Source of the DNA: Hwanghaeella sp.
Lineage (GTDB): Bacteria > Pseudomonadota > Alphaproteobacteria > UBA8366 > Aestuariispiraceae
NCBI RefSeq assembly: GCF_965227365.1
Contig: NZ_OZ245754.1
Span: 2,462,777 to 2,526,776 of the forward strand
Direction: 5' to 3'
DNA: 64,000 bases
Shown here: one piece after another, positions 36,082 to 51,528 of the stretch
How the letters are laid out: each line of letters starts with the position of its first letter
How positions within the stretch are numbered: position 1 is the stretch's first letter
Made by a program: the position numbers and the translations under genes
Notes under the pieces: generated by a model
What the model was told of the DNA's origin: nothing
What the model saw: the letters and a program-made list of their open reading frames with translations, nothing else
The model's database searches: none

Positions 36082-36100
36082 GCGCCCGGCGCCCCGCCGG

Positions 36101-36763: not shown

Positions 36764-37472
36764 GCCTGATACTCCAGCGTCGAAAATCAATTGGGAAACC
36801 GGACCGGCACCGATCCGCTACAGAGGATTGTGGCGCCGCCGCCTGCTGGTGGAAGAGGACGGCAGCCGCGATGCGGATACCATAGTCTGGTGGCTGCAGA
36901 GCCGACAACTCTTTGCCGACATCCGGCTGTCCCCCGATCGCAGCGCCGTTGCCGGCGCGACCTGTTTCGGCGATCTAGATCACGCCGGACTGCAGACGCT
37001 TGTTCTACAGGAAGGGTTTGCCGGTTTTCTGGAATGGACCGACACGGCCTGTGCCTGGCGTCGAAAGGTGGACTATCGCCCCCTACCCGGTCCGCCCGAT
37101 GAAGGCTGGATGGAGGCAAAAGGAAACGATCTGATGATCGAGCGCGGCATCCATCGCGGCTACCTGGAAGAATGGGTGCAAACCGCCGCCACCGATGCCG
37201 TCATGAACGACTGGATCTGGCATGATGGCTGGAACGGCCCGACACTTTTGCGGATCGGCAGCACCTTCATGTTCGCCGAGGATCGGCGCGGCAGCCCACC
37301 GCACGCAGAGAATTTCGAAACGAATGTCCTGGCCGCATTAGGGGACGAGGCTGCCCTCGCCGCGCTTCTCGATTGTGAAATCTCCTTCGGGAAGATCGGC
37401 GCGGACGGAACCTGGTCGATCACGATGTCCACCATTCCCTGGCGCGAGGGCGAAACGGTCACCGCCCTCTGA
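36762..37472 (+). CDS. hypothetical Trp-rich protein
   Basis: 236 aa with gene-like GC3 codon usage. No recognised family. Confidence 0.5.
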   Translation: MPDTPASKINWETGPAPIRYRGLWRRRLLVEEDGSRDADTIVWWLQSRQLFADIRLSPDRSAVAGATCFGDLDHAGLQTLVLQEGFAGFLEWTDTACAWRRKVDYRPLPGPPDEGWMEAKGNDLMIERGIHRGYLEEWVQTAATDAVMNDWIWHDGWNGPTLLRIGSTFMFAEDRRGSPPHAENFETNVLAALGDEAALAALLDCEISFGKIGADGTWSITMSTIPWREGETVTAL

Positions 37473-37537
37473 GCAATATTTTTTGCACTGCAACACTTCC
37501 CTTTTTCTGTCCCGCAGGTATACTTTCTATTCAAAGA

Positions 37538-37645
37538 TTGCGGCTAGGGTTCCGATCGTCATCACGGCGGTGTCTGGACCGAGAGCTGACGCCTGGTCCA
37601 TCAACAGACCGGGTCCACGGCGGGATAAAAGCCCGGGAGGTCATG
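37538..37645 (+). promoter_or_regulatory. guanidine-I riboswitch (ykkC-yxkD class) aptamer
   Basis: Conserved blocks are in the right order and spacing: CTAGGGTTCCG (37544-54), TGGACCGAGAG (37575-85), CACGGCGGGATAAAAGCCCGGGAGG (37616-40). Lies in the 300-nt leader of the DUF1989/carboxylase operon. Confidence 0.85.
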
Positions 37646-37773
37646 GTGGTGCTGCGGTGCGCCCAACCTCCGAGACGTTTGTCTCCCGGATATCAGGACC
37701 GCTCCGTTCAGCATCAGAGCTTCAATTGCCGTCCGCCCCTGGAAAGGGCAGGCCGGCGGTGACGAGGGAGGCG

Positions 37774-38613
37774 ATGATGACGGCCGAAACAGCGAGCATT
37801 GACGAGTTGAAAGCCCGTTATGCCGCATTGAAAGAAACAGGGCAGAAGGAAGGCGAGTTCGAGGCCAGATTGGCCGGCGCCCCTGCAGCGCCCGTGACGA
37901 TCCCGGAAAACAGGATATCGAAACAGGAAACGGTCCCCGGCGGCTGGTATTGGACCACGACCGTGAAGCGCGGGCAGACGCTGCGCATCGTGAATTCGCA
38001 CGCCACGCCCGGTATCGCCCTGCAGATCTGGAACCAACACGACCCGTCCGAACGGTTCAATTCCGCCGATACGATCAAGGTTCAGTGGACGGCGCGGATC
38101 GGCAAGGGCCGTGTGCTGTTGTCCGATATGGGCCGGGTCTTGATGGCGATTACCGAAGACACCTGTGGTTATCATGACTGCGTCGCCGGACACTCGACGG
38201 CAATCACCAACGAAAAGAGTTATGGTTCGGGCACCCTAAGGAACAGCCCTGTCCCGGTGCGCAACAGCCGCGATAACTTCCTGATCGCCGCCGCGAAACT
38301 GGGGCTCGGCAAGCGGGACGTCCATCAATCCTTTTGCGCCTTCGCCCCCGTCGAGACGGGCGAAGAAGGCGCCCTGACCTGGAAGGACGGCGCCCTGAAA
38401 GCCGGCGATTTCATCGATCTGCGCGCGGAAATGGATTGCATCCTCTGCCTGTCGAATTGTCCCCATCCACTGGCACCGGGCGGGAGTTACGATCCTCAAC
38501 CCGTTGCCGTGACCATCTGGGATGCGGGCCCGGTCGCCGAGAATGATCTGTGCCGGACCGGAACCGCGGAAGCGGTCCGCGCCTATGAGAATACGGACCC
38601 GCTTTTCGACTGA
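37774..38613 (+). CDS. urea-carboxylase-associated DUF1989 protein 1 (carboxyguanidine deiminase subunit-like)
   Basis: ATG 37774 after GAGGGAG SD. Motif RGQTLRIVN...ERFNSADT...DTCGYHDCVAGHS. The upstream part of the ORF-track frame covers the riboswitch and is not coding. Confidence 0.8.
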   Translation: MMTAETASIDELKARYAALKETGQKEGEFEARLAGAPAAPVTIPENRISKQETVPGGWYWTTTVKRGQTLRIVNSHATPGIALQIWNQHDPSERFNSADTIKVQWTARIGKGRVLLSDMGRVLMAITEDTCGYHDCVAGHSTAITNEKSYGSGTLRNSPVPVRNSRDNFLIAAAKLGLGKRDVHQSFCAFAPVETGEEGALTWKDGALKAGDFIDLRAEMDCILCLSNCPHPLAPGGSYDPQPVAVTIWDAGPVAENDLCRTGTAEAVRAYENTDPLFD

Positions 38614-38681
38614 GTCCCTTGGATATGCCGATGCGCGGCGGGCGCGGAACGACCCGCATGACCGCCGCCGGGAGATGAAAC

Positions 38682-39323
38682 ATGACCACATTGAGCAACC
38701 TGCAACCGGACACCGCCAAACAACGCCTTAAAGTGCCGGCAAACGCCCCCTTCTCCGCCATCGTGAAGAAGGGGCAGACCATTCGCATCGTCGACAGTTT
38801 CGGCCAACAGGCCGTCGACACCCTATTCTACAACGCCGCGGATACGGACGAGCGCTATTCCGCGCATGACACGGTCGCCGCCCAAGGCGCCGCCTATATC
38901 ACCACCGGATCCAAGGTGCTTTCCAACGAAGGCAACCTGATGTTGACGGTAACCGCGGATACGGTCGGCTATCACGACACATCCGCCGGCGCGTGTTCGG
39001 TTGAATCGAACACGGTTCGCTTCGGCCACCACACGCGCTTCATGCATGCCTGTCGCGAGAACTTCGTTCTGGAAGCCGCGAAATACGGCATGGACAAGCG
39101 AGACATCGTTCCCAACATCAACTTTTTCATGAACGTCCCGATCGAGCCGGACGGCAATCTCGCCATCGTCGACGGCTTGTCGGAACCCGGCAACTATGTG
39201 GAGTTGAAGGCCGAGATGGATGTGATCTGCCTCATCTCGAACTGTCCGCAGGTGAACAATCCCTGCAACGGGTTCAATCCAACGCCGATCGAAATCCTGA
39301 TCTGGGATCGAGAACCGGCATGA
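38682..39323 (+). CDS. urea-carboxylase-associated DUF1989 protein 2 (carboxyguanidine deiminase subunit-like)
   Basis: 213 aa. Motif KGQTIRIVDSFGQQAVD...ERYSAHDT...DTVGYHDTSAGACS. 4-bp overlap with the carboxylase gene. Confidence 0.8.
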   Translation: MTTLSNLQPDTAKQRLKVPANAPFSAIVKKGQTIRIVDSFGQQAVDTLFYNAADTDERYSAHDTVAAQGAAYITTGSKVLSNEGNLMLTVTADTVGYHDTSAGACSVESNTVRFGHHTRFMHACRENFVLEAAKYGMDKRDIVPNINFFMNVPIEPDGNLAIVDGLSEPGNYVELKAEMDVICLISNCPQVNNPCNGFNPTPIEILIWDREPA

Positions 39324-42300
39324 TCAACAAAGTCCTCATCGCCAACCGGGGAGAGATCGCCGTCCGGATCATCCGGACCTTGCGGGAAATGGGTCTCCCC
39401 TCGGTGGCTGTCTATTCCGACGCGGATCGCCACGCCGCGCATGTGCGTCTTGCCGATGAAGCGGTTCGGATCGGTCCCGCGCCCGTCACGGACAGTTATC
39501 TAAACCGTGATGCGATCCTAGCCGCCTGCAAACAGACCGGGGCGGACGCGGTTCACCCGGGTTATGGGTTCCTGTCGGAGAACCCGGATTTCGCCGAAAG
39601 CCTGGAAGCGGAAGGGATCCGGTTCATCGGGCCGACGCCGGACCAGATGCGCATTTTCGGTCTGAAGCACAGCGCCCGCGAAGCGGCCGAGAACAGCGGT
39701 GTGCCGCTGCTGCCCGGCAGCGGATTGGTCGATACGCTGGAAGAAGCGAAGGCGGAGGCAGAACGGATCGGCTATCCCGTCATGCTGAAAAGCACCGCGG
39801 GCGGCGGCGGTATCGGCCTGCAATTATGCGAGAGGGCAGAGGATCTGCCGGAACTGTTCGAAACCGTCAGACGGCTCGCGAGGTCCAACTTTTCCGATCC
39901 GGGCATCTTTATCGAAAAATACATCGCCCATGCCCGTCATGTGGAAGTGCAGATCTTCGGCGACGGCAAGGGCCACGTCGTGTCTCTCGGCGAACGTGAC
40001 TGCTCCCTGCAGCGCCGGAACCAGAAGGTCGTCGAGGAAACGCCCGCCCCGAACCTGCCGCAAGCCACCAGGACGGCCCTGATCGATGCCGCTCTATCCC
40101 TCGGGCGGTCCGTCGATTACCGGTCAGCCGGAACGGTGGAATTCATCTATGACGGCAAGGCGGACGAATTCTACTTTCTGGAGGTGAACACCCGCCTGCA
40201 GGTCGAACATCCGGTCACCGAATTGGTCACCGGCGAGGACCTGGTATCCTGGATGGTGAATCTGGCGGCGGACAAGATGGACCTCGCCGCCTATCCCGAC
40301 GTACTGCCGGTGCGCGGCGCGGCCATGGAGGTGCGCGTCTATGCGGAAGACCCGGGCAAGGGATTTCAACCTTCCGCCGGACCGCTCACGCATGTCTCTT
40401 TTCCCGAAGGCGTGCGCGTAGACAGCTGGATAGAGACCGGGTCCGACGTTTCCATGTATTACGACCCGATGCTGGCCAAGGTCATCGTTCATGCGGACAC
40501 CCGGGACGCGGCGGCGGATGCCCTTTCCGACGCGCTGCGGAAATCGGCCATCTACGGCATTGAAACAAACCTGGCCTATCTCAGGGCGATTTCGGAAAGC
40601 GCCATGTTCCGTGCCGGCCATGTCTTCACGAAGGCGCTCGACCGGTTCGACTTCACGCCCAATACCGTCGACGTTCTTGCCCCCGGAACCCATTCGGCAC
40701 TTCAGGATTGGCCGGGACGGGTCGGTTTTTGGGATGTCGGTGTCCCTCCGTCGGGCCCGATGGACGCACTGAATTTCCGGCTGGCCAACGCCTTGCTCGG
40801 CAACGCGCCCGACGCCGCCGGACTGGAAATGACAATGACCGGGCCGACATTGCGGTTCAACCGCGATGCCGTCATCGTGCTGACCGGTGCCGACTTTCAT
40901 GCGAAGCTCGACGGCGACCCGGTCGATTGTTACCGACCAATCTCTATCCATCGCGGTCAAACGCTCAGTCTTGGCAAGGCCGGGGACGGCGGCGTTCGCG
41001 CCTATCTGGCGGTCGCGGGCGGGTTCGATGCGCCGCTCTATCTGGGCAGCCGTGCGACCTTCGATCTGGGCGGCTTCGGCGGACACGCCACCGGGAACTT
41101 GAAAAGCGGCGATGTCCTGCGTCTGACGGATAAGGCGGATGCCCCGGTTCTTCGCGGCGCCCTGCCCGGATCTCATTGGCCGCACTTGCCCGACGATTGG
41201 GAAATCGGCGTGCTTTACGGTCCACATGGCGCGCCGGACTTTTTCACGGATTCGGATATCGAAATCCTGTTCTCGACGCCCTACGAAGTCCATTTCAACA
41301 GCGCCCGCACAGGTGTCCGCCTGATCGGCCCGAAACCCGCATGGGCAAGGCCCGATGGCGGTGAAGCCGGTCTGCATCCATCGAACATCCACGACAATGC
41401 CTATGCCGTCGGGGCCATAGACTTCACCGGGGACATGCCGATCATTCTCGGCCCCGACGGTCCCAGCCTGGGTGGGTTCACCTGTCCCGCCGTCGTCGCC
41501 AAGGCCGAGCTTTGGAAGATGGGACAGTTGCGGCCGGGTGACCGTGTGCGTTTCAAGCGGCTGGCCCTGGCGGAAGCCGAAGCGCTCGAGGAACAGCAGG
41601 AAGCGTTCCTGAACGCCTTGTCCTTCGGCCGGGATGTCGAGCAGGCAGCCCCGCCCTCGCCCAGCATTCTGAAAGCATCCGGGCTGCGGGAGGACGCGGT
41701 CGTCGCCCGCGACGAAACGAATGGTATCGAGATTTGCTACCGCCGGACGGGTGAAGACTTCCTGCTCGTCGAATTCGGCGAACAGGAACTGGACCTGGAT
41801 CTCCGCGTAAAGGCCCATTTGTTGATGCAACGCATCCAGGCCGAAGAAATGGACACCGTCATCGACCTGACGCCGGGTATACGGTCGCTGCAAGTCCATT
41901 TCGACAACCGCCGGGTCAAGCCGAGCGATATGCTCGCCAAACTGCGCGAGTTCCAGAGCGACCTGCCGGCGCTGGACGATGTGATACTGCCGAGCCGGGT
42001 GGTCCATATGCCTTTGTCCTGGGATGACGAAAGCACGCGGATCGCGACGAAACGCTACCAGGACCTGGTCAGGCCCGATGCGCCCTGGTGCCCCTGGAAC
42101 ATCGAATTCATTCGTCGCATCAACGGGCTGGACAGTGTTGACGACGTCAAGAAGGTCGTTTTCGACGCAGATTACATGGTTCTGGGTTTGGGGGATGTCT
42201 ATCTCGGCGCGCCCGTCGCTACACCTGTCGATCCCCGCCATCGCTTGGTCACCACAAAATACAATCCGGCCCGCACCTGGACGCCACAAAACGCGGTCGG

Positions 42301-42946
42301 GATCGGCGGCGCCTATATGTGCGTTTATGGCATGGAAGGGCCTGGTGGGTATCAATTCGTCGGGCGTACCGTTCAGGTCTGGAACACCCATCGCCAAACC
42401 GGGAATTTCAAAGAAGACAAACCCTGGCTTCTGCGTTTCTTCGACCGCATCAAGTTTTACCCCGTCACCAACGAAGAACTCACCGAAATGCGTGACGGCT
42501 TCCTGCATGGAGAAGCGGAACTGAAGATCGAGGACGGCACATTCGACCTGGCCGAGTATCACCGGTTCCGGGCACAAAATGCGACGTCGATCGAGACCTT
42601 CCGAAGCAGGCGTCAAGCCGCCTTCGACGAAGAACGCGCGCGCTGGGAAGCGCAAGGGATCGCGGCCATTGTCGATGAAACCGATCTGGCGCCGGAACCG
42701 GTCGGCGTTGATCTGGCCGACGGCGCCATGCTGATCGAAGCACCGATGAACGGGTCGGTTTGGAAAGTCTCTGTCGAAATCGGTGATCGCATTTCCGCCG
42801 GCGACAAGGTCGCCGTCCTGGAAGCCATGAAGACAGAAATCGCTGTGGATGCAACGCAGGACGGGCACATCACCGATATCCTGTGCAAGCCGGGACAGAT
42901 CGTCCGGCCGGGTGACCCGCTGCTGGTCATTCAAACGGAGGCTTGA
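39320..42946 (+). CDS. uca: biotin-dependent urea/guanidine carboxylase
   Basis: 1208 aa. N-terminal biotin carboxylase (KVLIANRGEIAVRIIRT, MLKSTAGGGGIGL), central KipA/KipI-like carboxyltransferase domains, and a C-terminal biotinyl motif VLEAMKTEI. Confidence 0.92.
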   Translation: MINKVLIANRGEIAVRIIRTLREMGLPSVAVYSDADRHAAHVRLADEAVRIGPAPVTDSYLNRDAILAACKQTGADAVHPGYGFLSENPDFAESLEAEGIRFIGPTPDQMRIFGLKHSAREAAENSGVPLLPGSGLVDTLEEAKAEAERIGYPVMLKSTAGGGGIGLQLCERAEDLPELFETVRRLARSNFSDPGIFIEKYIAHARHVEVQIFGDGKGHVVSLGERDCSLQRRNQKVVEETPAPNLPQATRTALIDAALSLGRSVDYRSAGTVEFIYDGKADEFYFLEVNTRLQVEHPVTELVTGEDLVSWMVNLAADKMDLAAYPDVLPVRGAAMEVRVYAEDPGKGFQPSAGPLTHVSFPEGVRVDSWIETGSDVSMYYDPMLAKVIVHADTRDAAADALSDALRKSAIYGIETNLAYLRAISESAMFRAGHVFTKALDRFDFTPNTVDVLAPGTHSALQDWPGRVGFWDVGVPPSGPMDALNFRLANALLGNAPDAAGLEMTMTGPTLRFNRDAVIVLTGADFHAKLDGDPVDCYRPISIHRGQTLSLGKAGDGGVRAYLAVAGGFDAPLYLGSRATFDLGGFGGHATGNLKSGDVLRLTDKADAPVLRGALPGSHWPHLPDDWEIGVLYGPHGAPDFFTDSDIEILFSTPYEVHFNSARTGVRLIGPKPAWARPDGGEAGLHPSNIHDNAYAVGAIDFTGDMPIILGPDGPSLGGFTCPAVVAKAELWKMGQLRPGDRVRFKRLALAEAEALEEQQEAFLNALSFGRDVEQAAPPSPSILKASGLREDAVVARDETNGIEICYRRTGEDFLLVEFGEQELDLDLRVKAHLLMQRIQAEEMDTVIDLTPGIRSLQVHFDNRRVKPSDMLAKLREFQSDLPALDDVILPSRVVHMPLSWDDESTRIATKRYQDLVRPDAPWCPWNIEFIRRINGLDSVDDVKKVVFDADYMVLGLGDVYLGAPVATPVDPRHRLVTTKYNPARTWTPQNAVGIGGAYMCVYGMEGPGGYQFVGRTVQVWNTHRQTGNFKEDKPWLLRFFDRIKFYPVTNEELTEMRDGFLHGEAELKIEDGTFDLAEYHRFRAQNATSIETFRSRRQAAFDEERARWEAQGIAAIVDETDLAPEPVGVDLADGAMLIEAPMNGSVWKVSVEIGDRISAGDKVAVLEAMKTEIAVDATQDGHITDILCKPGQIVRPGDPLLVIQTEA

Positions 42947-42949
42947 GGC

Positions 42950-43207
42950 ATGATGCCTGACGCACCGAAAACGACAATGTTCGAACTGAGCCTGGACAGT
43001 TTGGCCGTGGCGATTGTCGTCGAGGCCTTTGGCAGTTTTGCCGAGCTGATCCCACGGCAGCTGGGTATCGGCACAGAGGCCCTGGCAAACGGACTGCAGG
43101 TCAAAGGTTTCATCTGCGAACCGACTGGTATCGCAGCCGCAACCGAGATCACGCAATATGGCCGATGGCGATCCTATTGCGCGGAAACTGCCGCCTGGAG
43201 TGCATAA
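42950..43207 (+). CDS. 85-aa ORF matching only the C-terminal domain of allophanate hydrolase (remnant or stand-alone domain)
   Basis: FGSFAELIPRQLGIGTEALANGLQVKGFICEP...EITQYGRWRSY resembles the AtzF/DUR1,2 AH C-terminus. GGAGG SD present. Occupies the slot where full-length AH normally follows the carboxylase. No amidase-signature domain is present. Confidence 0.5.
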   Translation: MMPDAPKTTMFELSLDSLAVAIVVEAFGSFAELIPRQLGIGTEALANGLQVKGFICEPTGIAAATEITQYGRWRSYCAETAAWSA

Positions 43208-43273
43208 AAGCACAAGACCAAAACCAATTGGCACGGAGAAATAGCGTTTACAGAACCGAACAGGAGCGCCGCC

Positions 43274-44350
43274 ATGGAACTGCCGAAGTATGATGCTAAC
43301 GCCGCCATCCGCCCGACCGATGTCCGCAAGGGCACCGGCTATGCGGCAGAGCGCATCGATTTCGATAGCATCCCCATCGTCGATATCGGTGCGGCGATCA
43401 ACGGAGATCCGGACGGCAAGCAAAGGGCCGCGGCGGCGTTGAGAGAGGCCGCCGCGAATGTCGGTTTCTTCTACATCAAGAACCACGGCGTCCCCGACGA
43501 CGTCATCAGCAAGGCGCAAGCGGCCGCGGATCGTTTCTACGGACTGCCAATAGCGGTGAAATCGCAATACGACGTTGCCAAGGCGAAACGCCACCGGGGC
43601 TATGTTCCGGTCGGCGGTCTCAGCGCCGATCCGACCACTTCCGACCTGCAGGAAGGATACGAGGTCGGCCTGGAAGTGCCTGAGGACGATCCCGACTATC
43701 TATCCGGCAATCCACTGTTCGCGCCGAACAACTGGCCGGCGGAACTACCGGAATTCCGGGCCGACATCTATGCCTATTTCGAAGAGATGATGAAACTCGG
43801 CCGCACGATGTACCGGCTGTTCGCGCTGGCGGTCGGCATGCCGGAAGACTATTTCGACGACAAGGTGACCAAGCCCTGCGCGCAGCTGCGTGTGATGTAC
43901 TACCCGGAGACGGACCCGAAAGACAGCGCGGTCGGCATCGGCGCCCATACGGACTACGAAAGCTTCACTGTGCTCTACCAGTCGGAATCCGGACTGCAGG
44001 TACAGAACCGCGCCGGCGCCTGGATCGAAGCCCCGCCGATCCCCGGTACCTTCATCGTCAACATCGCCGACATGATGATGCGATGGACCAACGAACTTTT
44101 CGTGTCCACACCGCACCGCGTGATCAATACGTCCGGCAGGAAACGCTTCTCCCTGGCGCTGTTCTTTGCGGCTGATTACGACACGGTGGTGGAGTGCCTG
44201 CCTAGTTGCACGAATGCTGACAATCCGCCGAAATATCCGCCGACGCATTTCGGATATTGGATCGAAAACATGCATTCCTATTCCTACGCTTATCGCTGGG
44301 ACGAACGCGGCAAACTGCCGAACCCGGAACTCACGGACACGAGAGGCTGA
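43274..44350 (+). CDS. 2-oxoglutarate/Fe(II)-dependent oxygenase, isopenicillin-N-synthase/EFE family (paralogue B)
   Basis: 358 aa. GIGAHTDYE ... PHRV and RFSLALF. By eye roughly 40% identical to the 34105-35160 product. Confidence 0.85.
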   Translation: MELPKYDANAAIRPTDVRKGTGYAAERIDFDSIPIVDIGAAINGDPDGKQRAAAALREAAANVGFFYIKNHGVPDDVISKAQAAADRFYGLPIAVKSQYDVAKAKRHRGYVPVGGLSADPTTSDLQEGYEVGLEVPEDDPDYLSGNPLFAPNNWPAELPEFRADIYAYFEEMMKLGRTMYRLFALAVGMPEDYFDDKVTKPCAQLRVMYYPETDPKDSAVGIGAHTDYESFTVLYQSESGLQVQNRAGAWIEAPPIPGTFIVNIADMMMRWTNELFVSTPHRVINTSGRKRFSLALFFAADYDTVVECLPSCTNADNPPKYPPTHFGYWIENMHSYSYAYRWDERGKLPNPELTDTRG

Positions 44351-44378
44351 GCCCCGCCCCATTTGAAAGGAACGAGCT

Positions 44379-45281
44379 ATGATCCAGAATCCCATTCCCT
44401 GGCCGAACGGCGCGAAATGCGCCTGCGCGATCACCTTCGATATCGATGCCGACAGCTTGATCCATGTGGCACGGCCCGGCGACTCCCATAACCGCCTATA
44501 CCCGATCAGCATGGGGAAATACGGTCCCGACGTCGCCATTCCACGAATTCTGGAGACCTACAAGCGGCTTGGCATCAAGCAGAGCTTCTTCGTCCCCGCC
44601 TGGTGCATCGACCAATACGCGCCGGTGATGGAGAAGATCCTGGAAGGCGGCCACGAGATCGGCCATCACGGGCTTATTCATGAAGACCCGATCGAGACGA
44701 TGGGCCCGCGTCAGCGCGAAGCCTTCGAAAAGGCGCTTTCAATCCATCGGCGCGTGTGCGGCGGCAAGCCCAAGGGTTATCGCGCCCCGGTCTATAACAT
44801 TACGCCGCAAGTCGTGGATCTGTTGATCGAACATGGCTTCGCCTACGACTCTTCCCTGATGGGGGATGATATCCCCTATCTACTGGAGAAGGACGGCAAC
44901 AGCATCGCGGAAATCCCGGTGCATTGGGGCTGCGACGACTGGCCCCCCTTCGCGCATTACGAGGAAATCGGTTACATGATGCATGTACAGCCGCCATCGC
45001 TCGGCTATCAGGGTTTCTGGGAGGAATTCGAGGCCCAGTATGAAGCCGGCGGTTTCTTCATGATGATAGTACATCCCTTCCTGACCGGCCGCCTCGCGCG
45101 GTGGCGGGTTGTCGAAAAGTGGTTGGAAAACACCTTGGAGACGAAGGATGTCTGGTTCGCCAGACTGGACGAAATCGTCGACTACGTCCGCAGCCTGGAA
45201 AAGGCCGGCACCTATACCCCGCGCAAGGATCTGCTTCCCTACTATCCCGAACAGGTAAACCGGGCCGAAGCAGCGGAATAA
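44379..45281 (+). CDS. polysaccharide deacetylase family protein (PuuE-allantoinase-like size and architecture)
   Basis: 300 aa. NodB-like motifs (TFDIDADS, GHEIGHHG, YRAP). Confidence 0.78.
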   Translation: MIQNPIPWPNGAKCACAITFDIDADSLIHVARPGDSHNRLYPISMGKYGPDVAIPRILETYKRLGIKQSFFVPAWCIDQYAPVMEKILEGGHEIGHHGLIHEDPIETMGPRQREAFEKALSIHRRVCGGKPKGYRAPVYNITPQVVDLLIEHGFAYDSSLMGDDIPYLLEKDGNSIAEIPVHWGCDDWPPFAHYEEIGYMMHVQPPSLGYQGFWEEFEAQYEAGGFFMMIVHPFLTGRLARWRVVEKWLENTLETKDVWFARLDEIVDYVRSLEKAGTYTPRKDLLPYYPEQVNRAEAAE

Positions 45282-45298
45282 CTCCGATCAACCGGAAA

Positions 45299-45327
45299 GA
45301 CCCGCCGCGGATTTCTCCGGGCGGGTC
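45299..45327. terminator. GC-rich hairpin between convergent genes
   Basis: GACCCGCC-loop-GGCGGGTC. The minus-strand reading is followed by TCTTTCC. Confidence 0.45.
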
Positions 45328-45360
45328 CCATCCTGTCAAACCGCTTTGGGAACCGTGCCG

Positions 45361-45912
45361 TTACGCGGCGCGCCCGGCCGGTTCGACTTCCGGGAAGTCG
45401 ATCGGAGTGCCGAACACTTCGTTAACATAGTTGGTCAGCGTGTTCAGCGCGACATGCACAACGATTTCCACCAGTTCCGCATCCGAGAAACCGGCGTCGC
45501 GAACCGCCTGCACGTCGGTAGCGGTGACATCGGCCCGGGAAATCGCGACTTTGCGCGCGAAGGCCACCGCGGCTTCCGCTTTCGGGTCTGAAGAACGGCC
45601 CCGGCGGTTCGCCTCAATTTCAATCGCATCCAGCTTCAGCATACCGGCAATCGCCGTATGGGCAGCGTTGCAGTAGTTGCAGCCATTCACATTGGCGATG
45701 GCAAGCGCGATGCGTTCGCGGGTCCGGGCATCCAGCGCGCCCTTGCCGAGAGCCTCGCTCAAGGAGAGCGTTCCTTCCAACGCCGCCGGACTGTTGGCGA
45801 TAAGCTTGTAGAGGTTCGGTGCGAAACCGATCTTCTTTTCCACTGCTTGCAGCAGGGGTTGGGAAGCCGCAGGGGCGCTGGCGACGTCAGCGGGCAAATT
45901 TACGTTCAACAT
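45361..45912 (-). CDS. carboxymuconolactone decarboxylase / AhpD-like family protein
   Basis: 183 aa with AhpD-type CxxC (NGCNYCNAAH). Confidence 0.83.
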   Translation of the reverse strand: MLNVNLPADVASAPAASQPLLQAVEKKIGFAPNLYKLIANSPAALEGTLSLSEALGKGALDARTRERIALAIANVNGCNYCNAAHTAIAGMLKLDAIEIEANRRGRSSDPKAEAAVAFARKVAISRADVTATDVQAVRDAGFSDAELVEIVVHVALNTLTNYVNEVFGTPIDFPEVEPAGRAA

Positions 45913-46082
45913 TTCTCATTCCTTTCGTGGTTTCTGTAACAGAGGTCCAGGTTGATATTCAGGTTAGGCTTTCTCGCGGGGTTATTCGGCCGGTCAGCCG
46001 CCTTTCGGGTCCCGCATTGACTGACCGTTGTACCGGTGCACCGGGTGACCTTTTTCGGACTCGGTCCTCGGAGCGCCGAAAT

Positions 46083-46454
46083 TCACTTTTTTGTCCCAAG
46101 GCTCGGCCGTAATTCGAACTGGGCCGACAATTCACGTTCCCCTGACAAGGCCCGTATGCAGACATGACGCGGTGTCGCTTTCGACCCGCCGGACAATTGC
46201 TCGATCGCCATCACCATCACGGACCGTTCTGTCGGCTTACAAACGCCACCGCCGGTTTGCGGTCTTCCAATGTCGGCGGCAGTGACCTCGGTTCGGATTC
46301 TATCGATCGGGACCGGGGCCGTTTGAACGACCCTCACTTCCTCAACCTCCGCGCCAAACCAGTCCGCATCCCATAACTGCTCCACCGCCGACCCGGCGGC
46401 GAAGTCCAACGCCAAGGTCAACGCCGTCAACGCTCCTTTAGACATCAGGTTCAT
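46083..46454 (-). CDS. hypothetical small protein
   Basis: ATG 46454 is preceded by a strong SD (GGAGAGGG). 123 aa, no family recognised. Coding status uncertain. Confidence 0.35.
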   Translation of the reverse strand: MNLMSKGALTALTLALDFAAGSAVEQLWDADWFGAEVEEVRVVQTAPVPIDRIRTEVTAADIGRPQTGGGVCKPTERSVMVMAIEQLSGGSKATPRHVCIRALSGERELSAQFELRPSLGTKK

Positions 46455-46520
46455 GTCCCTCTCCTCTCTCAGACCCGCCTCGAACTCCCCCGTCCAAAGG
46501 CTCCAGCGTTTCGTTTCTGC

Positions 46521-46578
46521 AAACATTAACTGATCGGTTAATCTCATATGCTAAACATTAACCGTTCTGTCAATGTTT
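46521..46578. promoter_or_regulatory. candidate TetR operator cluster
   Basis: AAACATTAAC direct repeat (46521-30, 46553-62). Palindromes ATTAACtGATCgGTTAAT (46525-42) and AAACATT-N12-AATGTTT (46553-78). Confidence 0.4.
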
Positions 46579-46698
46579 GTGGTTCGGAAAACGACTGACG
46601 TTTTCGTGATCACAAGCCTTTTCCTTGTTTTCTTGAAACTTTCTGCCATATGTTGACCCGGAAACGGGAAAACCGTTCGGTAATTGTGAAGAGCGAAA

Positions 46699-47268
46699 AT
46701 GTCTGAATCTAAAAGAGATCAACTCATCCAGCGCGCCTTATCGGTCTTCTATAAGGACGGGTTTCATGCGGTTGGCATGGACAAGATCGCGAAAGAGACG
46801 GGTGTTTCAAAAACCGCGATCTATAAACACTTCAGGACCAAGGACGACCTGATCCTGGCGACGCTGCGCCTGCGGGACGAACAGTTTCGAAATTGGATTA
46901 TTCGCCGGATCGAAGAGATTGCGGAGGATCCCGCGGAGAGGATCCTGGCGTCTTTCGATGCATTGAAGGAATGGTTCCTGGAACCGACCTATCTGGGATG
47001 CATGTTCATCAAGGCATCGTCGGAGTTTCAGGAGCGCGACAGTTCCATCCACGCCATCTGCGCGGAGCATAAACGGATCCTGGAACGCTATCTGATTGAC
47101 CTTGCGGAAAAGGCGGGCGCACGGAACCCGGACCAACTGGGCGCGCAGATCCTATTGCTGCAGGAAGGCGCCATCGTGGTGGCGGCCCTAATGAATCCCG
47201 AAAAGGCCGTAAGCGACGCCAAGGCGGCTGCCGCCACCCTGTTGGAGCAGGCCCTCAGCGCCGCTTAA
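46699..47268 (+). CDS. TetR/AcrR family transcriptional regulator
   Basis: 189 aa with N-terminal HTH (GMDKIAKETGVSKTAIYKHF). Confidence 0.88.
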   Translation: MSESKRDQLIQRALSVFYKDGFHAVGMDKIAKETGVSKTAIYKHFRTKDDLILATLRLRDEQFRNWIIRRIEEIAEDPAERILASFDALKEWFLEPTYLGCMFIKASSEFQERDSSIHAICAEHKRILERYLIDLAEKAGARNPDQLGAQILLLQEGAIVVAALMNPEKAVSDAKAAAATLLEQALSAA

Positions 47269-47291
47269 AAAGGAGGCGGACCCTGCCGCCC

Positions 47292-49583
47292 CTATTCGAT
47301 GATAGGCGGATCGTAGGCCCTGCTTTCGGGAATATCGCCGCGCGCGGCCTCGACATCCACAAGGCAACTATGCGCCGTCGGCCCTTGGGCCATGCTGGAC
47401 GTCCCCTTGTCCAGGGTCAGGACATTCGGGTTGCCGTGCCGGCAGGTATTTCCGTCCGGTTCATACCATGCACCGGTGGCAATCTGAATCACGCCGGTCC
47501 GTACATCATCGCTGATCCTGAGCCCCGCGTAACACGCACCGCGCCCATTGAATATCCGCACGATCTGGCCTTCTGAAAGGCCACGCGCAGCGGCATCGTC
47601 AGGATGCATCGTCACAGGTTCGCGCCCGTCAATCCGGTCCGCCCGGCTGACGGAGCCGTGGTCCAACTGGCTGTGAAGTTTGGTTCGCGGCTGATTTGAA
47701 ATCATGTGCAGCGGATAGGATCCGACATTGCCGAGCCATTCGCCCGGCTCAAGCCAGACCGGGTGTCCCGGGCAATCCGCATCACCGAAGCCGGCCACGG
47801 TTTCGGAATAGATTTCGATCTTTCCACTTGGCGTCTTCAAGGGATTCGCGTCGGGGTCATCCCGAAACGCGTCGAACAGAACCGCCGGTTTCTCCGGCGG
47901 CGGAACCTTCATCCAACCCTTTTGCTGCATCGTGTCCCAATCGGGCAGTTCGAAAGCCGAGCGGGAGGCGGATTGGCGTGAAATTTCGTACATCCACTTC
48001 TGCCATTCCTCAGGGCTGCGCCCTTCCGTAAAGGCGTCCTCCAGCCCGAGTTCGGCGGCAATGCCGCGAAAGATGTCGTGGTCGCTCTTCGCCTGACCGA
48101 TCGGCTCGATCGCCTTGTCCATCACGACCTGATAGGCATCACGCGGATTGAGGGCGAGGTCCGACCGCTCAAGCGTCGTGCTGCAGGGAAGAACGATATC
48201 CGCATGACGGGCAAGGCTGTTCCAGCACCACTCGTTGACAATGACGGTTTCCGGCCGCGCCCAGGCTTTCCGCAGGCGGTTCAGGTCCTGATGGTGGTGA
48301 AACGGATTGCCGCCGGCCCACCAGACGAGACGGACGTCGGGATAGGTATGGTCCTTGCCGTTGTACCGGAAGCTGCCGCCCGGGTTTTCCAGCATCTCCG
48401 AAACGCGCGCGACAGGAATGAATTTGCGCACGGAATTCTTGCCCTGGGGGAAGGACGCGAAGTGCATTTTCCGCAAACTCTGCCCCACCTTGTTGGTGGC
48501 GGAGTATCCGAAACCGATGCCGGTGCCCGGCAGGCCGATCTGCCCCAGCATGGCGGCCAGGTTGATCGCCGCCCAATAGGGTTGCTCCCCATGGTCCTGA
48601 CGGGTCAGCGACCAGGAGATCGAGATCATCGTCCGCTGCGACGCCATGCGCCTCGCCAATGCGCGGATCTCATCGGCAGGCAGTTCGCAGATTTCCGACG
48701 CCCATTCCGGCGTTTTGGCAACACCGTCTTCCTCACCCGCGAGATAGGCGGCATAACGGTCGAACCCGACCGTATATCTGTCCAGAAATGCCCGGTCGTG
48801 CAGCCCTTCCGACAACAGCACCTGCGACAGGGCAATCATCAGGGCGGCGTCGGTGGACGGACGCGGCGACAACCACTCGGCCCCGACCGAGTCCAGCAGA
48901 TCCGATCTCAAGGGGGAAACATTGACGAATTTCACGCCCGCCTCGTGCGCGGCAAGCAGGCCCTGTTTCTGAATGTGGCTGCCCGTCCCGCCCTGGGAAA
49001 TCTGTCCGTTCTTCAGCGGAACGCCGCCGAAGGCGACGAAAAGCTCGCAGGCTTCCGCAATCGAATCCCAGCCCGTGCATTCGGCTAACAGTTCGTAGAA
49101 TGAGCCCAAAACATGCGGCACGATGACCTCGGCCGCCGCATAGCTGTAGGTATTCACCGAACTGGTGAACCCGCCCAGGCAGTTCAGGAATCGTTTCAAC
49201 TGTCCTTGCGCGTGATGGAATCGGCCGGCGCTGGCCCAGCCATAAGAGCCGGCATAGATCGACGCATTGCCGAACTCGGTTTTGACGCGCTTCAACTCGG
49301 CGGCGACCAACCGGTTGGCTTCGGCCCAAGTCACCTCTACGAAAACGTCCTCGCCGCGTTTCTCGCCGGCGGTGCCGGGGCCGCCTTCCAACCAGCTCTT
49401 GCGCACCATTGGCGCCTTGATCCGGGTCGGCCCGTCGAGGACATCGACGATTCCATGTCCGATGGGCGACGGATCCGGATCCTCCGCGAAGTCCTTCATG
49501 CCGGTCACACGTCCGTTTTCGACGGAGACATGATAGGTTCCCCAATGAGTGGCGGTGATCAGATCACGGTTGCGGATATCCAT
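47292..49583 (-). CDS. molybdopterin (bis-MGD) oxidoreductase, biotin-sulfoxide/TMAO reductase (BisC) type
   Basis: Collinear with E. coli BisC by eye (ATHWG..., SYGWASAGRFHHAQ, PVARVSEMLENPGG, GHPVWLEPGEW). ATG 49583 has a GAAGGGA SD. GTG 49634 is an alternative start. Confidence 0.9.
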   Translation of the reverse strand: MDIRNRDLITATHWGTYHVSVENGRVTGMKDFAEDPDPSPIGHGIVDVLDGPTRIKAPMVRKSWLEGGPGTAGEKRGEDVFVEVTWAEANRLVAAELKRVKTEFGNASIYAGSYGWASAGRFHHAQGQLKRFLNCLGGFTSSVNTYSYAAAEVIVPHVLGSFYELLAECTGWDSIAEACELFVAFGGVPLKNGQISQGGTGSHIQKQGLLAAHEAGVKFVNVSPLRSDLLDSVGAEWLSPRPSTDAALMIALSQVLLSEGLHDRAFLDRYTVGFDRYAAYLAGEEDGVAKTPEWASEICELPADEIRALARRMASQRTMISISWSLTRQDHGEQPYWAAINLAAMLGQIGLPGTGIGFGYSATNKVGQSLRKMHFASFPQGKNSVRKFIPVARVSEMLENPGGSFRYNGKDHTYPDVRLVWWAGGNPFHHHQDLNRLRKAWARPETVIVNEWCWNSLARHADIVLPCSTTLERSDLALNPRDAYQVVMDKAIEPIGQAKSDHDIFRGIAAELGLEDAFTEGRSPEEWQKWMYEISRQSASRSAFELPDWDTMQQKGWMKVPPPEKPAVLFDAFRDDPDANPLKTPSGKIEIYSETVAGFGDADCPGHPVWLEPGEWLGNVGSYPLHMISNQPRTKLHSQLDHGSVSRADRIDGREPVTMHPDDAAARGLSEGQIVRIFNGRGACYAGLRISDDVRTGVIQIATGAWYEPDGNTCRHGNPNVLTLDKGTSSMAQGPTAHSCLVDVEAARGDIPESRAYDPPIIE

Positions 49584-49706
49584 GGTCAACTGTCCCTTCA
49601 AGAAATTCCGGCGATTGTACTCTCTGCGGGACACAGAACAATTGACAACTATCGCCGCTGGGGAACACTGCCCTTTCCCTGGCAGCCGATAAGTCCAACA
49701 ACGAAG

Positions 49707-49731
49707 AGGGCGCTGAAATGATCAGCGCCCT
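49707..49731 (-). terminator. stem-loop downstream of ahpF
   Basis: Perfect 10-bp stem AGGGCGCTGA-N5-TCAGCGCCCT. The minus-strand trailer CTTCGTTGTT is T-rich. Confidence 0.5.
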
Positions 49732-49838
49732 TAGGGTTTCCATGAGCTGTCCCCGACCATCCTATCGGCGCCGTTCGTCGGGGTGACCGCCCGCACAGCA
49801 GCCACCCCTCTGATGCAACCGAAGCCGGCCGGGGCTTC

Positions 49839-51404
49839 TTATTGTTGGAAATTCTTCAGCAGGTAATCGAAGGCGGACAGGGCCGCTTTCGATCCTTCAC
49901 CCATTGCGATGACGATCTGTTTGTAGGGAACGGTCGTCACGTCACCACAGGCGAAGATGCCGGGAACATTCGTTTCGCAGCGCTCGTTCACGATGATCTC
50001 GCCGAACTTGCTCTGCTCCACGACGTCCTTCACGAACGCGCTGTTCGGCACCAGACCGATTTGAACGAATACACCGGCAAGGTCCTGCTTGCGCACTTCG
50101 TCGGTCGCGCGGTCCTTGTACTCGATCGCCGTGACCTTGCCGCCTTCCGCAATGATCTGCTGCGTCGCGGCGTTCTTGACGATGGTGATATTGTCCCGTG
50201 CCTCAGCCTGATCGACCAGGATCTTGTCGGCCTTCAACTCGGGCAGGAATTCGAACACCGTGACCGATTTTACGATACCCGCCAGATCCAGGGCAGCTTC
50301 GACGCCTGAATTTCCACCGCCGATAACCGCAACGTCCTTGCCTTTGAAGAACGGGCCGTCGCAATGCGGGCAATAGGCCACGCCGTTGCCGATGTTTTCC
50401 TTCTCACCGGGGCAGCCCAGTTCTCGCCATTGCGCACCGGTAGCGATGATCAGGGTCTTCGCGTCGATCACTTCGCCGGAGGTCAGCGTGACCGATTTCG
50501 TCTCGCCGTTCTCCACTTTCTCAACGGAGAAATGTTCCTTCAGGGTGATGTCGTATTCGCGCAGATGCGCCATCAGGGCGTTGGACAGTTCGGGCCCGGT
50601 CGTCTTCGGAACGGAAACAAAGTTCTCGATGCCGAGGGTGTCCTTCACCTGCCCGCCGACCCGGTCCGCAACCACCGTCACCTTCAGCCCCTTGCGCGCC
50701 GCATAGATCGCCGACGCGACGCCGGCCGGCCCGCCGCCTATAACCAGGACGTCCTGCAGCGGCATCTTCTCGACAGGCGCGGATTTGGCCGCCGACTTTG
50801 GTTTCGTTTCCATCAGGCGGTTGACCAGGATCGAGGCATCGACCTTGCCGTTCGCGAACACGTCACCATTCAGATAAACCGTCGGCACACCCTGGATGTT
50901 GCGCTTTTCGATCAACTCCGGATAAAGCCCGCCATCGATCATCTCGCAGGTTATGCGCGGATTGAGGACAGCGAACTGGTTCAGCGTCTGAACCACTTCC
51001 GGACAGTTGTGGCAGCTCAAGCTGACGAAGACTTCGAATTTAAGATCTTCGTCGATACCGGCAATGATCGCCTTCAGGCTGTCATCCAGTTTGATCGGCG
51101 TGCCGGAGGAATGCAGCAATGCCAGCACAAGGGAATTGAACTCGTGCCCGCCAGGAATGCCGGAGAACCGAATGCCGCTGTCGGCGCCGTCGACCTCGAG
51201 CAGGAAGCTGATCGGGCTCATCAGCTTTTCCGGTTCGTCGCGCTCGACCACAGTGATGCGCGCGCTGACGGAAGCAACATCGTCCAAAAATTTCTTCAAC
51301 TCATCGCGTTTTTCATGGCTGCCCGTCTGCAGCACCAGCGCCACGTCCTTGCTCATCGCGGCGGTGTAACCCTTCAAGGCATTCAGAATATCGGGACTCA
51401 ACAT
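49839..51404 (-). CDS. ahpF: alkyl hydroperoxide reductase subunit F
   Basis: 521 aa. Redox centres CHNCP and CPHCDG. FAD/NAD Rossmann motifs. Confidence 0.93.
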
Positions 51405-51481
51405 GGCTTTTATCTCTTTTTTGCAAGCGCAGGGGGCGCGTGTCGGGAATCCAAAAGGGGTCGGCTGCTGTCGGGAGGAGT

Positions 51482-51517: not shown

Positions 51518-51528
51518 CAAGGTCGGAC

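Follow-up and report, generated by a model that had tools for sequence, protein, structure and literature searches.

The Fe(II)/2OG oxygenase EFE releases guanidine through the C5 hydroxylation of L-arginine. In plants, the 2-ODD-C23 homoarginine-6-hydroxylases and Din11 add a hydroxyl group to the carbon adjacent to a guanidino nitrogen, giving a hemiaminal that breaks down to guanidine and an aldehyde (Funck et al., eLife 2024, PMC11018352). The described system that comes closest to the locus discussed here is that of Vreelandella boliviensis, in which MgdH, a 2OG dioxygenase, and MgdL, a lyase, convert methylguanidine to guanidine and formaldehyde (Sinn et al. 2025, Nat Commun, PMC12508155). 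Both are encoded in a gca operon controlled by Gd-I/Gd-II riboswitches, the whole of which is induced by guanidine or methylguanidine, and N-(hydroxymethyl)guanidine is unusually long-lived (PMC12508155). Natural sources of methylguanidine have remained elusive, except for the abiotic decay of creatinine (Sinn et al. 2025, PMC12508155). Beyond this work and a hypothesis paper (PMC12623156), we found in the literature no second characterised oxygenase, no DUF1989 partner and no link between creatininases and riboswitches.

The locus from Hwanghaeella sp. described here touches on an open question, the origin of environmental guanidine and methylguanidine. It lies in a 64-kb stretch of DNA, analysed as a whole and called the window below, and its features are collected in Table 1. 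On one strand, a guanidine-I (Gd-I) aptamer is followed by cgdA, cgdB, the carboxylase gene gca, a remnant of allophanate hydrolase (AH), a gene for an oxygenase that we call OxyB and, starting 28 nt 3' of it as the final gene of the operon, a gene for a CE4 hydrolase. Of the parts of a riboswitch-controlled gca operon, the Gd-I aptamer, CgdA/CgdB and the urea-type carboxylase—with its biotin carboxylase, carboxyltransferase and BCCP domains all found—are present, and an intact AH is absent from the 64-kb window.

Table 1. Features of the Hwanghaeella locus, in positions of the window.
Feature	Coordinates	Strand	Basis
Glutamine-synthetase-like ligase (type III-like)	27762..29177	-	Pfam Gln-synt_C
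Creatininase-family amidohydrolase	29471..30301	+	Pfam Creatininase 9e-62
ABC importer: uca-type NMT1 substrate-binding protein, permease, ATPase	30255..33342	+	
SDR oxidoreductase 1	33346..34092	+	Pfam adh_short
OxyA, second IPNS-type 2OG oxygenase	34105..35160	-	Pfam domains; MgdH ortholog (by sequence)
SDR oxidoreductase 2	35314..36081	+	Pfam adh_short
Isochorismatase-family cysteine hydrolase, BiuH/TrtA-like	36101..36766	-	Pfam Isochorismatase
MgdL homolog (N-(hydroxymethyl)guanidine lyase family), 236 aa	36762..37472	+	tblastn
Guanidine-I riboswitch aptamer	37533..37641	+	Rfam RF00442, full-length, 86.4 bits (gathering score 63)
CgdA-like DUF1989 protein (UAAP1)	37774..38613	+	TIGR03425 273 bits, above cutoff; ATG at 37774 read from the sequence
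CgdB-like DUF1989 protein (UAAP2)	38682..39323	+	TIGR03424 333 bits, above cutoff
Guanidine (urea-type) carboxylase Gca, 1208 aa	39320..42946	+	TIGR02712 1845 bits, above cutoff
Allophanate hydrolase (AH) remnant, 85 aa	42950..43207	+	AH_C, TIGR02713
OxyB, IPNS/EFE-type Fe(II)/2OG oxygenase, 358 aa	43274..44350	+	Pfam, ligands, AF2 model
CE4 / polysaccharide-deacetylase-family hydrolase, 300 aa	44379..45281	+	Pfam Polysacc_deac_1

Upstream of the riboswitch lies an island of further genes. Its ABC importer is of the same type as the transporter of the V. boliviensis operon, scoring above the cutoff of TIGR03427 (425 bits) and carrying the Pfam domains BPD_transp_1 and ABC_tran. The glutamine-synthetase-like (GS-like) ligase falls just under the cutoff of TIGR03105 (448 bits), and the isochorismatase-family hydrolase stays below that of NCBIfam BiuH (225 bits) and matches PDB entries 6xix/6xjm at E 1e-57 to 1e-55. 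The creatininase-family protein, whose true start is probably at 29528, lies below the NCBIfam cutoffs for both creatininase and MftE and finds PDB creatininases at E 1e-22. At the other end of the locus, the CE4 protein, WP_425405159.1, matches the PuuE/allantoinase family weakly, and its top PDB match is 3rxz, a structure with no assigned function.

The OxyB gene opens with an ATG, has the ribosome-binding site AGGAG 8-12 nt 5' of it, and encodes a protein that an exact-sequence look-up identifies as WP_425405158.1 (Hwanghaeella sp.). An NCBIfam profile search matched no family to OxyB or OxyA, and both Pfam domains of IPNS/EFE-like Fe(II)/2OG oxygenases exceed their gathering scores in OxyB (DIOX_N, 5.5e-29, 101.6 bits against a cutoff of 27.3; 2OG-FeII_Oxy, 8.2e-24, 84.3 bits against 23). 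The protein has the HxD...H iron triad (H225, D227, H281) and the RxS motif that binds 2OG (R291, S293); across 50 homologs the first four of these residues are invariant and S293 is nearly so. Its AlphaFold2 model (mean pLDDT 91, pTM 0.91) predicts a double-stranded beta-helix with an N-terminal alpha/beta domain, and the best PDB matches are IPNS-type oxygenases, with a Foldseek probability of 1.00 for 9ovh, 6jyv, SpoC, T7H, CC_0200 and IPNS. By its sequence, OxyB is a genuine IPNS/EFE-type Fe(II)/2OG oxygenase in which the metal and 2OG ligands are complete, and we judge it from domains, ligands and predicted fold to be catalytically intact.

The family assignment made in the earlier note was right at this broad level; a special closeness to EFE was not borne out. 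EFE of Pseudomonas savastanoi/syringae shares with OxyB the broad DIOX_N and 2OG-FeII_Oxy family and the fold, but EFE chains match OxyB at only 1.4e-15 to 2e-15 and over residues 55-240 alone, compared to 5.6e-66 for the protein Anc357, and the top 50 Foldseek matches include no natural EFE. Of the PDB entries, the one that matches best, 9ovh, does carry the name 'EFE'; it is actually the reconstructed ancestor Anc357, which is closest to PaIPNS (6jyv) and whose natural substrate is not known (PMC12329707).

A bacterial oxygenase that liberates guanidine and is coupled to guanidine assimilation, presented in the earlier note as a new functional link, has already been published in the form of MgdH/MgdL (PMC12508155). 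Oxygenases feeding guanidine breakdown were described in 2025, and OxyB, by its placement in a separate clade, is not that enzyme. The window's counterpart is OxyA, protein WP_425405150.1, which is 51.7% identical to V. boliviensis MgdH (A0A265DXP8) over 350 aa, compared to 39.6% for OxyB. In a neighbour-joining (NJ) tree, MgdH and OxyA form one clade and OxyB belongs to another, each with a bootstrap of 100/100, and many other subfamilies fall between the two. From these comparisons OxyA is an ortholog of the methylguanidine hydroxylase and OxyB a paralog at ~40% identity; identity, tree and bootstrap together rule out OxyB as the MgdH ortholog. The clades also differ at a few presumed pocket positions: in the alignment, the MgdH clade has acidic residues at 115, 116 and 269 (the E115, E116 and E269 equivalents) and lacks R270, and the OxyB clade instead has G/A115, L116, M269 and an invariant R270. 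These differences suggest that the OxyB substrate pocket is not built for a bare small cation. OxyA itself, on the minus strand, had been absent from the earlier note.

A homolog of MgdL is also encoded in the window, directly upstream of the riboswitch and with OxyA nearby, both outside the riboswitch unit. The protein, WP_425405153.1, matches V. boliviensis MgdL in tblastn at E 5e-11, with 28% identity over 227 aa. Its residues D53/R55 align with the catalytic D49/R51, and neither they nor D113, E127 and several Trp residues vary; D113/E127 would be equivalent to the guanidine-binding D112/E126. The 85-aa AH_C reading frame and the CE4 gene were considered as the MgdL counterpart and rejected, as the published MgdL matches 36762..37472 instead; the gene that follows OxyB is a CE4 hydrolase gene and not mgdL.

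The operon around OxyB is conserved. The Gd-I aptamer occupies the same position in loci L001, L032, L024 and L020, and relatives at 88% and 69% protein identity (L001, L030-L032, L024) share the order gca-(AH)-OxyB-CE4. In L032, AH is wholly deleted and the ATG of OxyB lies one base past the gca stop, so co-transcription is well supported. In the window itself, the spacer between the AH remnant and OxyB (43208..43273, 66 nt) holds no stable hairpin or terminator, its folding being unexceptional (z = 0.98, 168 of 200 shuffles as stable), and no terminator-like site was found on the plus strand from gca to the end of the following gene. The earlier note's description of OxyB as lying downstream of the carboxylase and the AH remnant, on the same strand and after a 66-nt gap free of hairpins, is accurate, and from the conserved gene order and the gca-OxyB junction of L032 the oxygenase is likely to be co-transcribed with the riboswitch-headed gca operon, as had been suggested. 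Guanidine inducibility, which had been thought probable, would be conferred by the Gd-I aptamer upstream; how far downstream its control extends can only be presumed, because no canonical intrinsic terminator was found in the expression platform of the riboswitch. Neither a Gd-II nor any other riboswitch was detected before gca or OxyB at E <= 1 across 33000..45500. A motif conserved in the AH-OxyB spacer of the 88% group, TTGGCA(C/T)GGAG, could be an internal promoter; in the window its TTGGCAC form lies at about 43228.

The AH remnant, as the earlier note had called it, is real. The 85-aa reading frame matches just the C-terminal end of AH (the last ~58 residues; AH_C/TIGR02713), and alignment with the full-length AH of L001 and L024 maps an in-frame internal deletion that leaves ~18 N-terminal and ~62 C-terminal residues and removes the amidase domain. 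No other AH match lies within the 64-kb window. To judge from the sequence, guanidine assimilation at the OxyB locus may be incomplete, AH being broken.

Outside the gca operons, the OxyB clade occurs in other arrangements. L025/L037 hold OxyA, an SDR, a uca-type ABC transporter, a creatininase, a GS-like ligase, a single DUF1989 gene and OxyB, and L055, at 50% identity, holds DUF1989, OxyB, a creatininase, an SDR, an isochorismatase and an NCS1 permease. The single DUF1989 gene is divergent from OxyB in L025/L037, L027, L036 and L055, and proteins of this kind beside OxyB homologs stand at much the same distance from CgdB as from the DUF1989 domain of TMAO demethylase. The gene set of the window recurs in the OxyB clade after rearrangement.

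Our tentative reading, which we consider quite possible, is that OxyB acts on a substituted guanidine that is not methylguanidine, hydroxylating the carbon beside a guanidino nitrogen, and that the product feeds guanidine to the operon. We infer the hydroxylation mechanism, and speculate that in the Hwanghaeella lineage OxyB was recruited, along with the CE4 hydrolase, to the 3' end of the Gd-I-controlled cgdAB-gca operon. Candidate substrates would be guanidinoacetate, creatine, taurocyamine and similar guanidino acids or, alternatively, a ring compound resembling creatinine on which the neighbouring creatininase-family, SDR and BiuH-like enzymes would act. The hemiaminal formed by OxyB would break down to guanidine or methylguanidine and a carbonyl product, either spontaneously, through the MgdL homolog, or after processing by the CE4 hydrolase; the guanidine so released would be assimilated by the carboxylase pathway. 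Induction of OxyB by guanidine would then amount to positive feedback, following the same logic as in V. boliviensis. The precedent of MgdH/MgdL in a Gd-I/Gd-II-controlled gca operon (PMC12508155) argues by analogy for such a role. Also in its favour are the complete ligands and predicted fold of OxyB, the conserved gene order downstream of the aptamer, the unstructured spacer, the residue differences from the MgdH clade, the company that the OxyB clade keeps in other loci and the genes that follow OxyB in L027, which fit an N-dealkylating oxygenase. Against it stand several homologs at ~70% identity in loci without guanidine genes, the surroundings of a marine group at 55-70% identity that look like amine catabolism, the lack of a riboswitch beside homologs outside gca operons, and three features described above, namely the possible internal promoter motif, the riboswitch without a canonical terminator and the broken AH.

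A wider version of this proposal, which we regard as doubtful, would join OxyB to the whole island—the creatininase-family enzyme, two SDRs, BiuH/TrtA-like amidase, GS-like ligase, CE4 hydrolase, MgdH ortholog and MgdL homolog—in one enzymatic route from an abundant guanidino compound to methylguanidine and guanidine. Such a route might start from creatinine/creatine or guanidinoacetate and proceed by hydroxylation at Calpha or at the ring C5, followed by cleavage of the hemiaminal.

The rival that survives best, in our view somewhat unlikely, is that OxyB N-dealkylates a nitrogen compound other than a guanidine, for instance an alkylamine, a gamma-glutamyl-alkylamide or a quaternary amine, that its place in the gca operon reflects nitrogen scavenging or chance, and that no guanidine is released. 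Homologs at ~70% identity in L023, L028/L029/L038 and L048 have no guanidine gene nearby, and we found no guanidine riboswitch beside any homolog outside the gca operons. In a marine group at 55-70% identity, homologs are accompanied by GS-like ligases, alpha/beta hydrolases and FMO/PhyH oxygenases, with ABC transporters as well in L033-L035 and the members at ~55%, a context that looks like amine catabolism. In L027, a GFA-family (formaldehyde-activating) gene and a choline-dehydrogenase-like gene come after OxyB, neighbours that fit an N-dealkylating oxygenase, and L036 has reading frames that match them in size and order. However, loci whose arrangements are independent (the window, L024, L025/L037, L055) repeatedly combine the clade with DUF1989, creatininase-family, SDR and BiuH-like genes, and OxyB stays intact in the gca operon across 69-100% identity and abuts gca in L032. 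A guanidine-specific riboswitch would also be odd for an enzyme with an unrelated substrate.

The CE4 gene allows for another possibility, one that we consider improbable: OxyB and the CE4 hydrolase might together demethylate methylguanidine without formaldehyde. OxyB would carry the oxidation of N-(hydroxymethyl)guanidine on to N-formylguanidine, and possibly as far as N-carboxyguanidine, the CgdAB substrate, and the CE4 hydrolase would split N-formylguanidine into guanidine and formate. CE4 enzymes depend on a metal to remove N-acyl groups, and only within gca operons is the OxyB-CE4 pair conserved (L001, L030-L032, L024). Fungal thymine-7-hydroxylase (T7H), which takes a methyl group step by step through hydroxymethyl and formyl to carboxyl, ranks with the top structural matches of the OxyB model (TM 0.73-0.84); the MgdH ortholog OxyA would supply N-(hydroxymethyl)guanidine, and this compound is long-lived (PMC12508155). 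Yet the scheme is purely inferential, and an MgdL homolog with residues aligned to the catalytic dyad is already there to cleave the hemiaminal. OxyB homologs outside gca operons also lack a CE4 partner, and in Crenobacter (L009/L010) CE4 homologs occur with creatininase and MgdL-like genes and no oxygenase. That OxyB is simply redundant with MgdH, a second and guanidine-controlled hydroxylase of methylguanidine or dimethylguanidine, seems just as improbable: it occupies the mgdH position of V. boliviensis right after gca (or AH) and shares the protein family at ~40% identity, but it lies outside the MgdH and OxyA clade (bootstrap 100/100) with many subfamilies between, lacks the acidic positions of that clade and neighbours a CE4 hydrolase rather than MgdL in a window that already has an MgdH ortholog.

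If the reading we favour is correct and OxyB frees guanidine or methylguanidine from a common guanidino compound, this would be a new guanidine-forming reaction, through which nitrogen of the creatine or phosphagen type would enter the guanidine carboxylase pathway; the route through the whole island, if true, would supply the missing biological source of methylguanidine as well as an oxygenase activity new among those that form guanidine. If OxyB frees no guanidine, the finding shrinks to a correctly annotated oxygenase in a known kind of operon. The Hwanghaeella locus extends the MgdH/MgdL system to marine Alphaproteobacteria, and its island is larger, having a second, distinct oxygenase under a guanidine riboswitch together with CE4, creatininase-, BiuH- and SDR-type enzymes.

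Several known enzymes invite comparison with OxyB. PHM/PAL and ureidoglycolate lyase offer a parallel for a candidate reaction in which an N-substituted glycine (guanidinoacetate, creatine) would be hydroxylated at its alpha carbon and then split by a lyase into the N-compound and glyoxylate, but they have no sequence kinship with OxyB, and PHM uses copper. Among the closest solved structures, T7H (PDB 5c3p-5c3s, 28-31% identity) oxidises a methyl group on a nitrogen heterocycle; it differs in its substrate class, its iterative oxidation to a carboxylate and its eukaryotic origin, and the likeness to OxyB is one of fold only. The plant 2-ODD-C23 enzymes belong to the same 2OG oxygenase superfamily and perform the chemistry that we propose for OxyB, but they are eukaryotic, act on amino acids and have no operon link to guanidine assimilation. 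The MgdH/MgdL system differs in that OxyB is a paralog (39.6%) in a separate, well-supported clade and has a CE4 hydrolase in place of MgdL as its partner; in that the riboswitch unit does not include the window's MgdH and MgdL homologs, with OxyA on the opposite strand; in the absence from the window of a Gd-II riboswitch before gca; in the truncated AH; and in the host, an alphaproteobacterium rather than a halophilic gammaproteobacterium. Common to both are an IPNS-type Fe(II)/2OG dioxygenase encoded downstream of gca in a cgdAB-gca operon with a Gd-I riboswitch, a uca-type ABC importer near the operon, an MgdH enzyme (here OxyA) and an MgdL-type protein with the D/R dyad positions conserved, and, as the logic that we propose for OxyB by analogy, a guanidine-inducible oxygenase that itself makes guanidine.

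The Fe(II)/2OG oxygenase OxyB, the flagged IPNS/EFE-type protein of the window, reads from an ATG with an AGGAG ribosome-binding site close upstream. Its DIOX_N and 2OG-FeII_Oxy domains both score far over the Pfam threshold, no NCBIfam model was found for it, and the iron triad H225/D227/H281 and the 2OG-binding residues R291 and S293 are present and conserved across 50 homologs. The AlphaFold2 model is confident (pLDDT 91, pTM 0.91), and its top PDB matches are IPNS-type oxygenases, the best being 9ovh, the reconstructed ancestor Anc357, which is nearest to PaIPNS (6jyv); a natural substrate is recorded for neither. The earlier note had related OxyB to the ethylene-forming enzyme (EFE), which holds at the superfamily level, but the kinship with natural EFE is distant. 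The description in that note of the ORF, the remnant of allophanate hydrolase (AH), the hairpin-free spacer and the upstream riboswitch and carboxylase was right in every checkable detail; we found no structure in that 66-nt spacer (z = 0.98).

Features of the operon containing OxyB and of its surroundings in the window
Feature	Position	Strand	Remarks
LysR regulator	5' of riboswitch		
GS-like ligase	5' of riboswitch		
Creatininase-family hydrolase	5' of riboswitch		
uca-type ABC importer	5' of riboswitch		
Two SDRs	5' of riboswitch		
OxyA, IPNS-type oxygenase	34105..35160	-	
BiuH/TrtA-like cysteine hydrolase	5' of riboswitch	-	PDB 6xix, E 1e-57
MgdL homolog	36762..37472	+	
Guanidine-I aptamer, full-length	37533..37641	+	86.4 bits, gathering score 63
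cgdA-like and cgdB-like DUF1989 genes	5' of OxyB	+	
gca, urea-type (guanidine) carboxylase	39320..42946	+	5' of OxyB; TIGR02712, 1845 bits
AH remnant	42950..43207	+	85-aa ORF; similarity confined to the C-terminal end of allophanate hydrolase
OxyB	43274..44350	+	358 aa; WP_425405158.1
CE4, polysaccharide-deacetylase-family hydrolase	44379..45281	+	3' of OxyB
Convergent AhpD/CMD-family gene; TetR regulator	within 45361..52092		downstream of operon
TorA/BisC-type molybdopterin S/N-oxide reductase	47292..49634	-	downstream of operon
ahpF/ahpC-like genes	49839..52092	-	downstream of operon

The expression platform of the riboswitch (37642..37773) has no canonical intrinsic terminator and no U-tract, and its minimum-free-energy fold pairs the cgdA Shine-Dalgarno region, so that sequestration of this site is possible in the predicted structure; this suggests that control may be translational or Rho-dependent rather than simple attenuation. 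Its control of the distal genes is accordingly putative. No terminator-like site was found on the forward strand from gca to the end of the gene after OxyB. The order gca-AH-OxyB-CE4, with a convergent AhpD-like gene next to it, is kept at about 88% identity in four relatives (L001, L030, L031 and L032); the same order is also found in the more distant L024 (69% identity), and the guanidine-I aptamer of the relatives lies, as in the window, between the MgdL homolog and cgdA. AH is full length (598-606 aa) in L024 (8121..9917), L001 (16193..17986) and L030, and apparently in L031, though the contig end cuts the gene there. The window carries an in-frame internal deletion, and L032 a precise, complete one (9990..10003), which leaves a single base between the gca stop codon and the OxyB ATG: expression of OxyB in L032 can therefore come only from the gca transcript. 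Because of this tie and the kept gene order, co-transcription of OxyB with the riboswitch operon in the window, as the earlier note had proposed, is likely, the support being comparative. The repeated loss among close relatives suggests either that AH is not needed here or that another place in the genome provides it.

Two further observations concern these relatives. The AH-OxyB spacer contains a motif, TTGGCA(C/T)GGAG, kept across the group of about 88% identity (window 43220..43245; L001 ~18030..18055; L030 ~4290..4315), which could be an internal promoter element; L024 lacks the motif, and in L032 it is deleted. The L001 contig (CAYGKA010000001.1) belongs to a MAG titled "uncultured Flavobacteriaceae bacterium", is syntenic with the Hwanghaeella window at about 82-94% protein identity for most genes (67% for the MgdL homolog) and is probably mis-binned.

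Sinn et al. (Nat Commun 2025, PMC12508155) described in Vreelandella boliviensis an operon under guanidine-I/guanidine-II riboswitch control that comprises an ABC importer, cgdA, cgdB, gca, mgdH, mgdL and atzF and is induced in its entirety by guanidine or methylguanidine. MgdH is a 2OG/Fe(II) dioxygenase that hydroxylates methylguanidine and rejected creatine, creatinine, guanidinoacetate, guanidino acids, arginine derivatives and metformin (PMC12508155); MgdL is the N-(hydroxymethyl)guanidine lyase, and the two enzymes together turn methylguanidine into guanidine and formaldehyde. With the MgdL sequence from the supplementary alignment of that paper as the query, tblastn against the window located a homolog directly upstream of the riboswitch (E 5e-11, 28% identity over 227 aa). 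Its D53 and R55, aligned to the catalytic D49 and R51 of MgdL, are invariant in the alignment, as are D113, E127 and several tryptophans; D113 and E127 are taken to be putative equivalents of the guanidine-binding D112 and E126. The ATGs of this gene (36762, +) and of the divergent BiuH-like hydrolase (36766, -) overlap. With no room for a promoter between the genes, either one of the two starts or both promoters must fall within the neighbouring gene.

OxyA came to light when the neighbourhood was annotated with Pfam, and it is to this oxygenase that the characterised MgdH is closer, with 51.7% identity over 350 aa against 39.6% to OxyB. A neighbour-joining tree of 93 oxygenases, drawn from all fetched loci, groups V. 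boliviensis MgdH with OxyA and with Halomonas and Caulobacteraceae enzymes that adjoin MgdL and gca, while OxyB and its homologs at no less than 69% identity form another clade; bootstrap support is 100/100 for both, and many other subfamilies lie between them. On these grounds of identity and tree position, sequence comparison makes OxyA the ortholog of MgdH and OxyB a paralog, and rules out OxyB as the MgdH counterpart. The MgdH ortholog and the MgdL homolog of the window both stand outside the riboswitch-controlled unit, just upstream of the riboswitch.

Positions 115, 116 and 269 are acidic in the MgdH clade, which is without Arg270; in the OxyB clade they are G/A, L and M respectively, and R270 is invariant. 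With the acidic positions replaced and R270 invariant, the pocket would fit a substrate other than a bare small cation. Tentatively, we favour as the target of OxyB a substituted guanidine distinct from methylguanidine; its hydroxylation would feed guanidine into the operon, a plausible role.

A survey of 80 metagenomic loci, with five targeted look-ups in addition, gives a mixed picture of the gene context of OxyB homologs. At 71% identity (L025/L037) OxyB is still joined after rearrangement to the same island, there made up of OxyA, SDR, uca-type ABC transporter, creatininase-family and GS-like genes and one divergent DUF1989 gene, and at 50% (L055) an independently organised locus holds DUF1989, OxyB, creatininase, SDR, isochorismatase, MBL hydrolase and NCS1 permease genes. 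A divergent DUF1989 gene also adjoins OxyB in L027 and L036 (70% identity); in L027 OxyB is followed by GFA-family (formaldehyde-activating) and choline-dehydrogenase-like genes, which suggests N-dealkylation, and the ORFs downstream of OxyB in L036 match these when compared by size and order only. That OxyB acts on an unrelated nitrogen compound would suit the remaining contexts: several 70% homologs have unrelated neighbours, marine homologs at 55-70% adjoin GS-like ligases, alpha/beta hydrolases and FMO/PhyH oxygenases, and no guanidine riboswitch was found beside homologs that lie outside gca operons. Set beside the loci that keep the island, this alternative is less likely. Further oxidation of the MgdH product by OxyB, with the neighbouring CE4 enzyme serving as deformylase, and simple redundancy with MgdH are both improbable.

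The recurrent single DUF1989 genes (L025/L037 7163..7855 and 9181; L027 7109..7795; L036 1011..1700; L055 8081..8692) encode an uncharacterised subfamily, equidistant from CgdB and the TMAO-demethylase DUF1989 domain.

A genome scan with the MgdL alignment gave 22 loci, the V. boliviensis operon (L021) among them, and in many of these creatininase-family and MgdL-like genes occur together, often with BiuH-like and SDR genes. This co-occurrence points to the island of the window as a multistep pathway that makes methylguanidine or guanidine from a guanidino compound of greater complexity. In Betaproteobacteria (L006, a Herminiimonas MAG, 117..11389; L008, L013, L016; L009/L010 of Crenobacter oryzisoli) MgdL-like genes are clustered with creatininase-family, BiuH-like, SDR, MBL, aldehyde dehydrogenase, NMT1-type binding-protein and AH genes, which gives the impression of a conserved, uncharacterised module for the catabolism of guanidino compounds. 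Their fetched flanks yielded no 2OG oxygenase; L006 instead has a membrane FA-desaturase-type di-iron oxygenase, and the Crenobacter loci have an arginase-family gene and a CE4 homolog with 39% identity to that of the window. Two of the candidate routes, drawn from gene context and general chemistry, would be chemically coherent. Guanidinoacetate or creatine could be alpha-hydroxylated and the hemiaminal cleaved to guanidine or methylguanidine and glyoxylate, analogous to PHM/PAL; alternatively, creatinine could undergo C5-hydroxylation, then oxidation, ring opening and deacylation, following the creatol route, a known chemical path to methylguanidine.

The reading of OxyB in the earlier note is thus partly supported. 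What it called a new functional link, together with the feed-forward logic, is already established for one enzyme pair, MgdH/MgdL, since mgdH lies in a gca operon induced by guanidine or methylguanidine (PMC12508155). The value of the present locus is a second, distinct oxygenase and a CE4 hydrolase, both probably under guanidine control, within an island that may explain where methylguanidine comes from. OxyA and the MgdL homolog extend the MgdH/MgdL system from V. boliviensis to marine Alphaproteobacteria, namely Hwanghaeella and the Phenylobacterium/Caulobacteraceae loci L003-L005.
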